Below, in pieces: positions 16,682-18,695 of a stretch of 64,000 bases of DNA. The stretch comes from an uncultured Clostridia bacterium. Lineage in GTDB: Bacteria; Bacillota; Clostridia; TANB77; CAG-508. The position numbers and the translations under genes are program-made. The notes beneath the pieces were generated by a model, which was not told the DNA's origin, ran no database searches, and saw nothing but the letters and a program-made list of their open reading frames with translations. Where the stretch lies: assembly GCA_904384205.1 (NCBI GenBank), contig CAJFJY010000001.1:19690-83689 (forward strand), in the 5' to 3' direction. Positions within the stretch are counted from its first letter, which is position 1. Each line of letters begins with the position of its first letter.

Positions 16682-17698
16682 ATGAAAAGAAACATAATAA
16701 TAGTAGTGATAATCCTAATAATTGTTATTATAGGAGTAAGCATATATAGTATATTTAGCAACAAAAATGAAACAGAAACAGAATTAAAAACAGTAAATGT
16801 AAGTGAAGTAACAAGGTCAGTATTCTATGCACCACAGTATGTGGCAATAAATGAAGGATTTTTTGAAGAAAATGGAATAAAAGTAGAATTAACAACATCA
16901 TCAGGAGCGGATGCAGTAATGACAACAGTACTTGCAAATCAATGTGATATAGGATTTGCAGGACCAGAAGCATCAATATATGTATATAATGAAGGAAAAG
17001 AAGACCATACACAAGTATTTGCACAACTAACAAAAAGAGATGGATCACTATTAATATCAAGAACAGACACAGACAATTTCAGTTGGCAAGACCTAAAAGG
17101 AAAAACAGTAATACCAGGAAGAAAAGGTGGAGTACCATATATGACACTTGAATATGTGTTAAGAAAAAACGGAATAGATCCAGAAACAGAAGTAACATTA
17201 GATGACAGCATAAAATTTGACTTAATGGCAGGAGCATTCGCAAGTGGAAATGCAGACTATGTAACACTATTTGAACCAACAGCATCATTAACAGAACTAG
17301 AAGGAAAAGGATATGTAGTAGCATCAGTAGGAGAAGCAGCAGGAGAAATACCATATACAGCATATTTTGCAAAACAAAGTTATATAGAAAACAATGAAGA
17401 AACAATACAAAGCTTCACAAATGCGATTTATAAGGGACAACAATGGGTAAAAGAACATACAGCAAAAGAAATAGCAGAAAGTATACAAAGCTTTTTCCCA
17501 GACACTAGTATAGAATTGCTAGAAAATGCGGTACAGACATATAAAGACATAGACGCATGGAATGACACACCAGTCTTAAAAGAAGAAAGTTTTAATAGAT
17601 TACAAGAAGTAATGAAGCAAGCAGGAGAACTTAACGAAGAAGTACCATATGAAGAAATAGTAAATAACCAATATGCTGAAAAGGCAATAGGGATTTAG
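16682..17698 (+). CDS. ABC transporter substrate-binding protein (NMT1/SsuA-like) with N-terminal membrane anchor
   Basis: N-terminal TM helix and NMT1/THI5-like periplasmic-binding fold features. Encoded after the ATPase and permease. The last codons (AIGI-TAG) lie inside repeat A3. Confidence 0.8.
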   Translation: MKRNIIIVVIILIIVIIGVSIYSIFSNKNETETELKTVNVSEVTRSVFYAPQYVAINEGFFEENGIKVELTTSSGADAVMTTVLANQCDIGFAGPEASIYVYNEGKEDHTQVFAQLTKRDGSLLISRTDTDNFSWQDLKGKTVIPGRKGGVPYMTLEYVLRKNGIDPETEVTLDDSIKFDLMAGAFASGNADYVTLFEPTASLTELEGKGYVVASVGEAAGEIPYTAYFAKQSYIENNEETIQSFTNAIYKGQQWVKEHTAKEIAESIQSFFPDTSIELLENAVQTYKDIDAWNDTPVLKEESFNRLQEVMKQAGELNEEVPYEEIVNNQYAEKAIGI

Positions 17699-17757
17699 GG
17701 ACGTATCTTAAAATCCCTAAAAGAAGGGATTTTGGGGACGGACCTCAAAATCCCATT
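17687..17757 (+). repeat. Repeat family A copy 3 (two intact hairpins: AGGGATTT-AGGGACGTATCTT-AAAATCCCT and GGGATTTT-GGGGACGGACCTC-AAAATCCC)
   Basis: Most complete copy of the family. Overlaps the stop of the SBP gene. Confidence 0.85.
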
Positions 17758-17984
17758 TTTTTAATTTGTCGAATTTTGCGATGAAAAGTTAGGCAATTTT
17801 AATAAAAAGTATTGAATTTTAAGATAAAATATGATTAAATAAAATAAATTTACATAAAATAAATTTTAATTTTATCATGAAATTTTTCAAATTGTCAAAA
17901 AGTATATTTAAATCTTTTAAAATTCCTAAATAAACATTTAAAATTTGAATTATTTAATTAGAATTTATTAAGAAAGGAGAAATA

Positions 17985-18695
17985 TTGAAATTTTTTACAT
18001 ATAATGATTATATTGATTATAATCAAAATAGAAACATAAGAGAAACAGTAAAAAAATTAACAAAAGGGGAAAGAATAGAGCAATTAACAGAAACAGAAGA
18101 AAGAATAGAAACAATAACTAAATTAATTATGAGGAATAAAAAAGAAAATTTTTTACTTATAAACGAATTTTTTAATGAAAAAATAAATTCGAACAATTTT
18201 GATTGGATAAAACTAAAAGAACAAAAAAGAAACATAAAAATATTCAAAGAAAGAAGTGAAGAAAAATATTATATTTTTGATTATAAAATAAAAAAAGATA
18301 ATCATATAGTGTACAAAATTTTTAAATTATGTATAGAGATAGTAGAAAATTGGAAAATGAAAAATAAAGAAAGCAATTATCCAATAATTTATCCAATTAT
18401 AATATATTTAGGAGATGAAGAATGGGACATTAAAATTCAAAGAAAATTAAAATCAACAGAGATTAAATCAAATGGAATATTTTTATCATACAATGTAATT
18501 GATTTCAGCAAAATATCATCTGAAAATTTATTAAAAAAAGAATCTCTATTAGCTAATGTAATAGGAGTAAAAAATCAAAAAGAACAAAACTTAGAAAAAT
18601 ATATAAGGGAAAATATAAAATATACAAATGACATACAAAAATATCAAAATATAAAAAGAATGTACTATTATTTAAATTATAAAACTAAAAAGTAA
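17985..18695 (+). CDS. Degenerate Rpn/YhgA-like (PD-(D/E)XK 'transposase_31') family protein
   Basis: YPIIYPIIIYLGDEEWD matches the conserved Rpn Y-P-V-V-Y-P-x-V-x-Y-x-G-x-x-x-W block. TTG start with SD AAAGGAG. Shares an upstream motif with the other Rpn paralogs. Confidence 0.45.
   Translation: MKFFTYNDYIDYNQNRNIRETVKKLTKGERIEQLTETEERIETITKLIMRNKKENFLLINEFFNEKINSNNFDWIKLKEQKRNIKIFKERSEEKYYIFDYKIKKDNHIVYKIFKLCIEIVENWKMKNKESNYPIIYPIIIYLGDEEWDIKIQRKLKSTEIKSNGIFLSYNVIDFSKISSENLLKKESLLANVIGVKNQKEQNLEKYIRENIKYTNDIQKYQNIKRMYYYLNYKTKK

Follow-up and report, generated by a model that had tools for sequence, protein, structure and literature searches.

Rpn proteins are widespread toxic DNA nucleases whose antiphage toxin-antitoxin role was recognised only recently, and to our knowledge their regulation is essentially undescribed. 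Here, a 64,000-nt stretch of DNA from an uncultured Clostridia bacterium (contig CAJFJY010000001.1; this whole stretch is 'the window' throughout) was analysed, in which three Rpn-like genes, named below by their start positions 17985, 23896 and 49514, are each preceded by a short motif beginning with TGTCGAA that is probably an operator for a transcription regulator. The published RpnL/RpnS toxin-antitoxin antiphage proteins carry four-amino-acid repeats and a small C-terminal domain, and comparisons of rpn genes have shown that their ends vary and have revealed neither terminal repeats nor target duplications (PMC10400941). No description of a shared upstream operator of rpn genes was found in the accounts of Rpn that were consulted.

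Several described operators resemble the motif. The CtsR operator is a tandem heptad, GGTCAAA-NAN-GGTCAAA, that overlaps clp and heat-shock promoters; regulators of the OmpR/PhoB type bind tandem direct repeats about 10–11 bp apart next to the −35; and the Spo0A boxes of abrB lie downstream of the promoter and act in repression. The core of the Spo0A box is TGTCGAA (PMC3485338), and the sequence upstream of B. subtilis abrB is TTTTGTCGAATAATGACGAAGAAAAAT (PMC3384351).

The motif and the three Rpn-like genes

The window is AT-rich (G+C 26.9%) and is syntenic with, and 75–90% identical in nucleotide sequence to, many assemblies of uncultured Clostridia or Clostridium sp.; judged from its sequence, it is a member of an AT-rich, uncultured gut clostridial clade with sporulation genes. 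A Fusobacterium origin, which the low G+C content might suggest, is rejected on this identity and synteny. The genes, motif sites and predicted promoters were located as follows.

17767..17788, + strand: predicted operator site 1, TGTCGAA-TTT-TGCGATGAAAAG, long form (exact match)
17812..17840, + strand: predicted promoter of 17985, −35 TTGAAT (17812–17817), 17-nt spacer, −10 TTAAAT (17835–17840) (from conservation)
17985..18695, + strand: degenerate Rpn-like gene, 236 aa (Pfam Transposase_31, PF04754, 39 bits, partial)
23677..23702, + strand: predicted operator site 3, variant TGTCGAA-AAA-TGACGAA, then CGATTTTTC, abutting the −35 (perfect match to TGNCGAA-N3-TGNCGAA)
23703..23731, + strand: predicted promoter of 23896, −35 TTGCAA (23703–23708), 17-nt spacer with TG, −10 TATATA (23726–23731) (from reading the sequence)
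23896..24879, + strand: intact Rpn-family gene, 327 aa (PDDEXK_2, PF12784, 178 bits; TIGR01784, 152.7 bits, cutoff 52.1)
24653..24774, + strand: 12-nt tandem repeat, 10.2 copies, encoding G-x-x-x repeats (GIEQ ×7) (tandem repeat finder)
49337..49358, + strand: predicted operator site 2, TGTCGAA-TAA-TGCGATGAAAAG (exact; invariant in 11 orthologous loci)
49382..49410, + strand: predicted promoter of 49514, TTGACT-N17-TATACT, −35 beginning 23 nt after the motif (scanner match)
49514..50134, + strand: Rpn gene with N-domain only, 206 aa (PDDEXK_2, 76 bits, cutoff 27.4)

The heptamer TGTCGAA occurs exactly three times in the 64 kb when both strands are counted, each time 150–220 nt upstream of an Rpn-like gene and on the same strand. 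The longer string TGTCGAAWWWTGCGATGAAAAGT is present exactly at 17767–17789 and 49337–49359, with 0 copies expected by chance. Site 3 (TGTCGAAAAATGACGAACGATTTTTC, 23677–23702) has TGTCGAA-N3-TG in common with sites 1 and 2 and then diverges. An earlier sequence-only reading of this DNA had placed one motif of about 25 nt upstream of all three genes; this is exact at 17767 and 49337, but at 23677 a variant is found and not the same 25-mer. The further string AAAAAGTATTGA named there consists of an A-tract and the −35 hexamer.

A simple promoter and terminator scanner did not discriminate in the AT-rich window (its counts were close to those in shuffles), and conservation and spacing statistics were used instead. 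The −35 of 17985 begins 23 nt after the motif and its spacer carries TATG (TRTG-type, 17830–17833); the −10, TTAAAT, is non-canonical and absent from the scanner's list. In orthologs of this gene with 78% and 54% identity, TTTGTCGAATTTTGCGATGAAAAGT, the −35 block AAAAGTATTGAATTTT and the −10 block TRTGATTAAAT are unchanged while the flanks drift. The promoter of 23896 fits the architecture TGTCGAA...CGATTTTYC-TTGACT-N17-TATAAT of related loci, and its site 3 lies within the intergenic region common to 23896 and the divergent gene ytaF. In the 11 orthologous 49514 loci the motif, TTGAC(A/T), TATACT and a palindrome at the predicted start are conserved. This palindrome, perfect in the window (GAATTATAATTC, 49423–49434; AAATTATATAATTT in relatives) and conserved in orthologs, lies just downstream of the predicted −10, where transcription is predicted to begin, and may serve as a second operator.

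Downstream of the three genes the motif has no partner, inverted or direct, and an invertible (phase-variable) promoter was dropped because the three leaders contain no inverted copy. A second leader motif, TTTAAATCTTTT (17907 and 49450), had 18 matches in the window with at most one mismatch against 12.7 expected, which is not significant. The AT-rich 5′ leaders (about 100–160 nt; 17905–17930 and 49446–49470 in the window) are enriched for AAATCCAAA, TCGAAAA and TTAATC-type words, 6–23-fold relative to other intergenic DNA, and leader 7-mers such as AATCCAA and TCGAAAA are enriched clade-wide, in both cases with orthologous loci counted together.

The sequence-only reading had called the three genes Rpn-family paralogs. 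By their profile matches all three are members of the PD-(D/E)XK Rpn superfamily, yet they are not close paralogs: the proteins of 17985 and 49514 have no similarity in BLASTP, and those of 23896 and 49514 are 29% identical. Only 23896 encodes an intact Rpn protein. Its catalytic residues D66, E80 and Q82 are invariant in the alignment with relatives, and the C-terminal repeat domain is present; the repeat at 24653–24774 appears to be its hypervariable RpnS-type region, and a small C-terminal domain comes after the G-x-x-x repeats. An in-frame ATG at 24583, preceded by AAGG and 13 residues ahead of the repeats, is a possible internal start, and this layout would fit the published RpnS intragenic antitoxin (PMC10400941). 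In its N-domain with D and E-x-Q, its four-residue repeats and its small C-terminal domain, 23896 resembles the RpnL/RpnS systems, unlike 17985 and 49514, in which the catalytic residues and the RpnS domain are lacking. The match of 17985 to PF04754 (39 bits, cutoff 21) covers profile positions 72–197 only and no NCBIfam match was obtained; aligned with intact relatives, it has N at the position of D and DYK at that of EHQ, and the protein is truncated, without the C-terminal RpnS-type domain. Synteny of 17985 with an Xre-HTH gene and smc is kept in relatives. The product of 49514 scores 37.9 bits against TIGR01784, below the cutoff of 52.1; it and every one of its orthologs have Gly at the position of the catalytic Glu (N(V/I)GIQ versus IEMQ in the alignment), and an RpnS tail is absent. 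Both genes are conserved at fixed syntenic positions across many species despite the lost catalytic residues, which suggests that they are domesticated, non-nuclease derivatives of Rpn. A nine-codon mini-ORF (ATG AAA GAA AGG AGG AAA AGT ATT ACA TAA) at 49485–49516 stops directly before the ATG of 49514 and includes its Shine-Dalgarno sequence, possibly by chance.

Form, phasing and targets of the motif in related genomes

For the comparison across species, one genome per species was scanned with TGTCGAANNNTGCGATGAAAAG, and at least 120 exact loci were obtained in 100 assemblies. Nearly all carry the label uncultured Clostridia or Clostridium sp. and belong to clade relatives of the window; the guts they come from are those of humans, rabbits, chickens, ruminants and mice. 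The clade-wide counts given below cover 939 kb of related DNA from loci chosen by the exact motif pattern. Many of the sites are orthologous, and this was handled by grouping them on unrelated downstream 400 nt, which gave 47 groups. A second, gene-first sample consisted of PDDEXK_2 loci from gut metagenomes that were picked by gene instead of by motif. A phage origin was dropped after only one match in IMG/VR, and an RNA-element reading was dropped likewise, the window containing no tRNA and no Rfam family. In the literature, the 12-mer TGCGATGAAAAG and its reverse complement were found only in unrelated primer sequences.

In consensus the motif is WW-TGTCGAA-WWT-TGCGATGAAAAG-T, which can be read as heptad boxes in head-to-tail order, spaced about 10 bp; an extra degenerate TGTCGAA box 10 nt upstream is seen at about 30% of the sites. 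The 939 kb contain 124 exact copies; a single copy has two mismatches, and copies with one or three are absent. The motif holds about 38 bits of information, far above what specificity in a genome of about 2 Mb needs. Its orientation is fixed, pointing toward a sigma-A-type promoter with −35 hexamers TTGACA or TTTACA and −10 hexamers TATAAT or TATTAT. Among the matches listed, the distance from the end of the motif to the best −35 was 3 nt (36 sites), 13–14 nt (21 sites) or 22–24 nt (55 sites) in 112 of 119 sites, and these three spacing classes hold in 42 of the 47 sequence-unrelated promoter groups. Since the spacings differ by whole helical turns and the orientation is fixed, a bound protein would lie on one face of the DNA relative to RNA polymerase.

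The first open reading frame (ORF) downstream of the motif, again among the matches listed, clusters with the three window Rpn-like proteins in 34 cases (35%), and is a sortase in 26 and a TasA-like secreted protein of about 195 aa in 15; the remaining targets include KilA-N, ORF6N, Bro-N, ToxN, SNF2, ComM-like, PP2C, MurJ-like and ThyA genes. Compared with other ORFs in the same DNA, Rpn-like genes are more than 100-fold enriched downstream of the motif (Fisher p = 2e-33). Contigs of the window's own species, 99% identical to the window end, carry a sortase gene about 3 kb past that end with an exact motif 3 nt ahead of its −35, and an element specific to Rpn genes is therefore excluded. In the gene-first sample the architecture of site 3 (TGTCGAA-N3-second box-CGATTTTYC-TTGACT-N17-TATAAT) precedes PDDEXK_2 in 24 of 80 loci; the long form of the motif was found in none of those loci.

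These features argue for the motif being an operator for a transcription regulator upstream of sigma-A promoters, neither tied to palindromes nor the end of a mobile element, and we regard this reading as probable. A shared promoter or operator had been offered as the alternative in the sequence-only reading, and this alternative is borne out by the conservation of the motif where the flanks diverge, by its helical register with a sigma-A-type promoter and by the other genes among its targets. A regulator bound to the motif would be placed in the manner of class I/II activators or response-regulator arrays, and transcription would start downstream of the predicted −10 elements, near 17847, 23738 and 49417. 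The regulon would comprise essentially all Rpn-like genes seen, a sortase and TasA-like secreted proteins, besides KilA-N, ORF6N, Bro-N, ToxN and further genes here and there. Like the sites of class I/II activators (e.g. CRP) and response-regulator arrays, the motif has spacings about 10 bp apart (3, 13–14 and 22–24 nt) and a fixed orientation; unlike CRP-type sites it consists of asymmetric direct repeats instead of a palindrome, and its promoters have near-consensus hexamers. Three very different Rpn-like genes with one positioned operator, common also to sortase and TasA-like genes, make a concrete and testable regulon. What is new is a regulon with a predicted operator, undescribed so far, in a lineage never cultured; the 22-mer can be used as bait for the regulator and as a marker for its targets in hundreds of metagenome-assembled genomes.

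Likeness to Spo0A boxes and candidate binders

All three window sites carry the 7-bp core TGTCGAA with G2, C4 and G5, identical to the Spo0A box heptamer, and share with abrB the head-to-tail tandem with a 3-bp spacer. As to the 10-bp periodicity of the abrB boxes, site 3 is a perfect TGNCGAA-N3-TGNCGAA, whereas sites 1 and 2 lack one base in the second box (TG-CGATG). The abrB sequence reads TGTCGAATAATGACGAAGAAAAA (PMC3384351), site 2 TGTCGAATAATG-CGATGAAAAG and site 3 TGTCGAAAAATGACGAA; site 2 differs from abrB by one deleted base and two substitutions. The host is in both cases a Firmicute with sporulation genes: the window encodes a YtaF sporulation equivalog above cutoff, and genes for SASP, SpoIVB, BofA and SpoVT are present in clade loci, as are those of REC+Spo0A_C regulators. 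The binder may quite possibly be a Spo0A-type DNA-binding domain, the favoured candidate here, either canonical Spo0A or one of the clade's divergent REC+Spo0A_C regulators. A more tentative proposal is that the near-invariant 22-bp operator descends from the Spo0A box and marks out a regulon common to the whole lineage, in which essentially all Rpn-family genes (an intact toxin or defence nuclease and its domesticated, catalytically dead relatives) are joined with sortase and TasA-like surface-fibre genes under one Spo0A-type developmental regulator; if this were true, Rpn nuclease expression would be tied to a cell-state switch and not to mobility.

There are also differences from Spo0A sites. 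Known sites are degenerate, while the long form here is one base short and near-invariant over 19 positions; the motif lies upstream of the promoter in three fixed helical registers, unlike the boxes of abrB; and Rpn-like, sortase and TasA-like genes are not classical Spo0A targets, nor is the binder here more than predicted. The CtsR operator also has two 7-nt direct repeats with a 3-nt gap, and its core GTC-A-AA is one base off GTCGAA, but no clp genes are among the motif targets. The consensus sequences of sigma-54, sigma-H, TnrA, WalR, LexA and PurR sites were compared by eye, and none fitted.

Several observations count against an operator of this kind. The promoters that bear the motif have −35 and −10 elements already close to consensus, an uncommon feature where a promoter depends on an activator, and the site could serve repression or fine tuning instead. 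The second box of the long form is one base short of a Spo0A box, so that the CGA cores are 9 bp apart and not 10. Outside the motif TGTCGAA is rare in the clade, with about 28 copies against 84 expected from composition, and this scarcity is unlike a typical degenerate Spo0A regulon. Near-invariance over 19 positions is atypical for any transcription-factor site and itself unexplained, although it arises partly by construction, the loci having been chosen by an exact pattern. In true spore-formers (C. perfringens, C. baratii, Priestia) the box was found upstream of none of four plasmid Rpn genes, and a search of clade loci for a canonical spo0A of the window's species yielded only divergent REC+Spo0A_C regulators and one orphan Spo0A_C protein. 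The recognition helix of the clade's REC+Spo0A_C regulators differs from that of B. subtilis. Finally, the OmpR-family regulator and kinase encoded just upstream of a motif-bearing sortase would be an equally plausible binder for tandem direct repeats.

It is somewhat unlikely, in our estimate, that the operator is genuine and that its binder is not of the Spo0A type, being instead this OmpR-family response regulator or another clade-specific regulator. In the window's species, about 0.4–3.7 kb past the right end of the window (L216 9413–12780), a regulator with Response_reg and Trans_reg_C domains and a histidine kinase are encoded immediately upstream of the sortase motif promoter, an arrangement that is syntenic in relatives, and this two-component system is a candidate regulator of the motif. 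The way in which OmpR/PhoB-type regulators bind such repeats would suit the motif, and the departure of the long form from canonical tandem Spo0A boxes, with its invariance, suggests a more extended recognition. The match to the Spo0A box in seven of seven bases, the close likeness to the operator of abrB, nearly identical in sequence, and the two canonical Spo0A boxes of site 3 speak for a Spo0A-type binder instead; moreover, the upstream region of the OmpR-type regulator's own gene lacks the motif, and its position beside one among many targets is weak evidence.

The REC+Spo0A_C regulators, of about 260 aa, form a large family with 1746 matches at E ≤ 1e-10. They are found in a conserved three-gene cassette with a divergent Xre-HTH gene and an unannotated protein of about 490 aa (L218/L219 9519–12566; L220/L221 9539–15754; L101 800–2033); one genome has the cassette in tandem duplicate. 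The L218 cassette contains a TGTCAAA-AAA-TGTCGAA pair, situated after the regulator and ahead of the gene for the 490-aa protein. An inserted segment in L041 (2417–4613), absent from the close relative L125, encodes an orphan Spo0A_C protein beside a large serine recombinase; the protein has no receiver domain and a canonical-looking ER..IR recognition helix, and the segment looks like a mobile element with a potential Spo0A mimic.

Palindromic elements, mobility and duplication

The sequence-only reading had placed each Rpn-like gene downstream of a palindromic element of the GGGAC type and had proposed a fixed association in which Rpn homologues mobilise or process these elements, as in the RAYT-REP (TnpA-REP) systems. 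The elements and the gene beside one of them are the following.

17688..17757, + strand: element A3, two hairpins with GGGAC loops (17688–17719 and 17726–17754) (hairpin search)
22760..22947, no strand: element B, 45-nt arms 22760–22804 and 22903–22947, 98% complementary (inverted repeat)
22945..23613, − strand: ytaF, divergent from Rpn gene 23896 (TIGR02840, 165.4 bits, cutoff 149.6; Pfam Mntp)
49049..49273, no strand: element E, nested AT-rich palindrome with one GTCCC core (inverted repeats)

All three elements exist, but their relation to the genes is that expected by chance. The second hairpin of A3 (17726–17754) with its T-run is intrinsic-terminator-like and belongs to the upstream NMT1-type gene. 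Element B does not adjoin an Rpn gene and sits between the convergent genes smc and ytaF. Element E is larger than had been noted, and most of its orthologous loci are without a GGGAC core. GGGAC or GTCCC cores occur in 13 of the window's 41 intergenic regions, usually right against the stop codon of the preceding gene; two of the 13 core-bearing regions are directly upstream of an Rpn-like gene and 11 are elsewhere, and at this core density the chance that at least two of three Rpn genes follow an element is about 0.24. For the clade, Rpn-like genes were compared with other, length-matched intergenic regions of 200 nt or more: 10 of 28 Rpn-like genes (36%) have an upstream core, as do 38 of the 160 other regions (24%; Fisher p = 0.24), so that 64% of the clade Rpn-like genes are without an upstream core. 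The link between GGGAC palindromes and Rpn genes is no more than chance.

The superficial likeness to RAYT-REP systems, namely short palindromes scattered between genes together with a multi-copy 'putative transposase' family in one genome, is tempting, and two of the three window genes do directly follow an element, with 2.2 cores per kb upstream of clade Rpn-like genes against 1.0 elsewhere, a non-significant difference. That Rpn-like nucleases are dedicated partners that mobilise or process the adjoining GGGAC elements is nevertheless next to negligible as an explanation. In addition to the counts above, a core was found in only 1 of 65 gene-first PDDEXK_2 loci; an A3-family copy lies after mfd (10673–10740) with no Rpn gene nearby; and gene and motif do not travel with the palindrome as a block, as orthologs of 17985 at 54% identity keep both and have a plain terminator instead. 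In the related species L114, element B and the ortholog of 23896 are both missing. Two of the three window proteins are without catalytic residues, all three genes match only PD-(D/E)XK families and not HUH/Y1 (IS200/IS605-type) transposases, the repeats do not flank the genes and are neither enriched nor co-conserved with them, and published comparisons of rpn genes found neither defined ends nor transposition (PMC10400941). The analogy between Rpn and a RAYT-like partner of local REP-like palindromes is thereby removed.

More can be said for the TGTCGAA motif itself being the 5′ end or recombination site of a mobile or gene-converting Rpn unit that travels with the gene. A unit of about 1.09 kb, made up of box, promoter, leader, PDDEXK_2 ORF and short hairpin, is repeated in other gut lineages with 82–98% identity and different flanks, the similarity beginning within a few bases of the box; motif-bearing Rpn-like genes are present or absent at syntenic positions, several species having one after mfd where the window has none; and L114 again lacks the ortholog of 23896. 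We still consider this very unlikely. The same motif stands before the sortase and TasA-like genes and many others, including in the window's species, and its helical phasing with the −35 is unexplained by an element end; because of these non-Rpn targets and the phasing, the box is taken as regulatory and not as an element end. There is one copy per gene with no inverted or direct 3′ partner, the edges vary by about 20–45 nt between strains, and the model agrees poorly with rpn comparisons lacking terminal repeats, target duplications and fixed ends (PMC10400941). It is highly improbable, too, that the motif is promoter sequence inherited through duplication, or an intrinsic, UP-like element for RNA polymerase that needs no dedicated regulator. 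Rpn genes do duplicate (PMC10400941), and the A-tract just upstream of the −35 in the 22–24-nt class resembles an UP element. The downstream proteins, however, are unrelated in sequence or of different families, and since those of 17985 and 49514 are dissimilar, the identical motif is no residue of a recent duplication between them; the motif contains G and C, is asymmetric, occupies three discrete helical registers and stays exact between species that share only about 75% identity in coding DNA.

The units of about 1.09 kb were seen in AT-rich gut lineages (L141, L142, L148, L151, L167, L173 and relatives, at about 2276–3366 in locus coordinates) and end in the hairpin CTTTCACTATAGCGAAAG; just upstream of their box lies a hypervariable segment of 20–45 nt, which suggests gene conversion among the copies. 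Further elements with a GGGAC core are present in the window at 10673–10740, 11728–11762, 16316–16607, 30907–30988, 35489–35540, 46752–46833, 59361–59414 and 63924–63981. They form several families, many start inside or at the upstream stop codon (TAGGGAC...), and similar ones occur in related assemblies; their behaviour is that of REP elements or of repeats associated with terminators. At the very start of the window (13–239), about 10 tandem units of 21–22 nt (TAGAACAAAAATACGGAAGTT-like) form an array upstream of the minus-strand ORF 588–3008.

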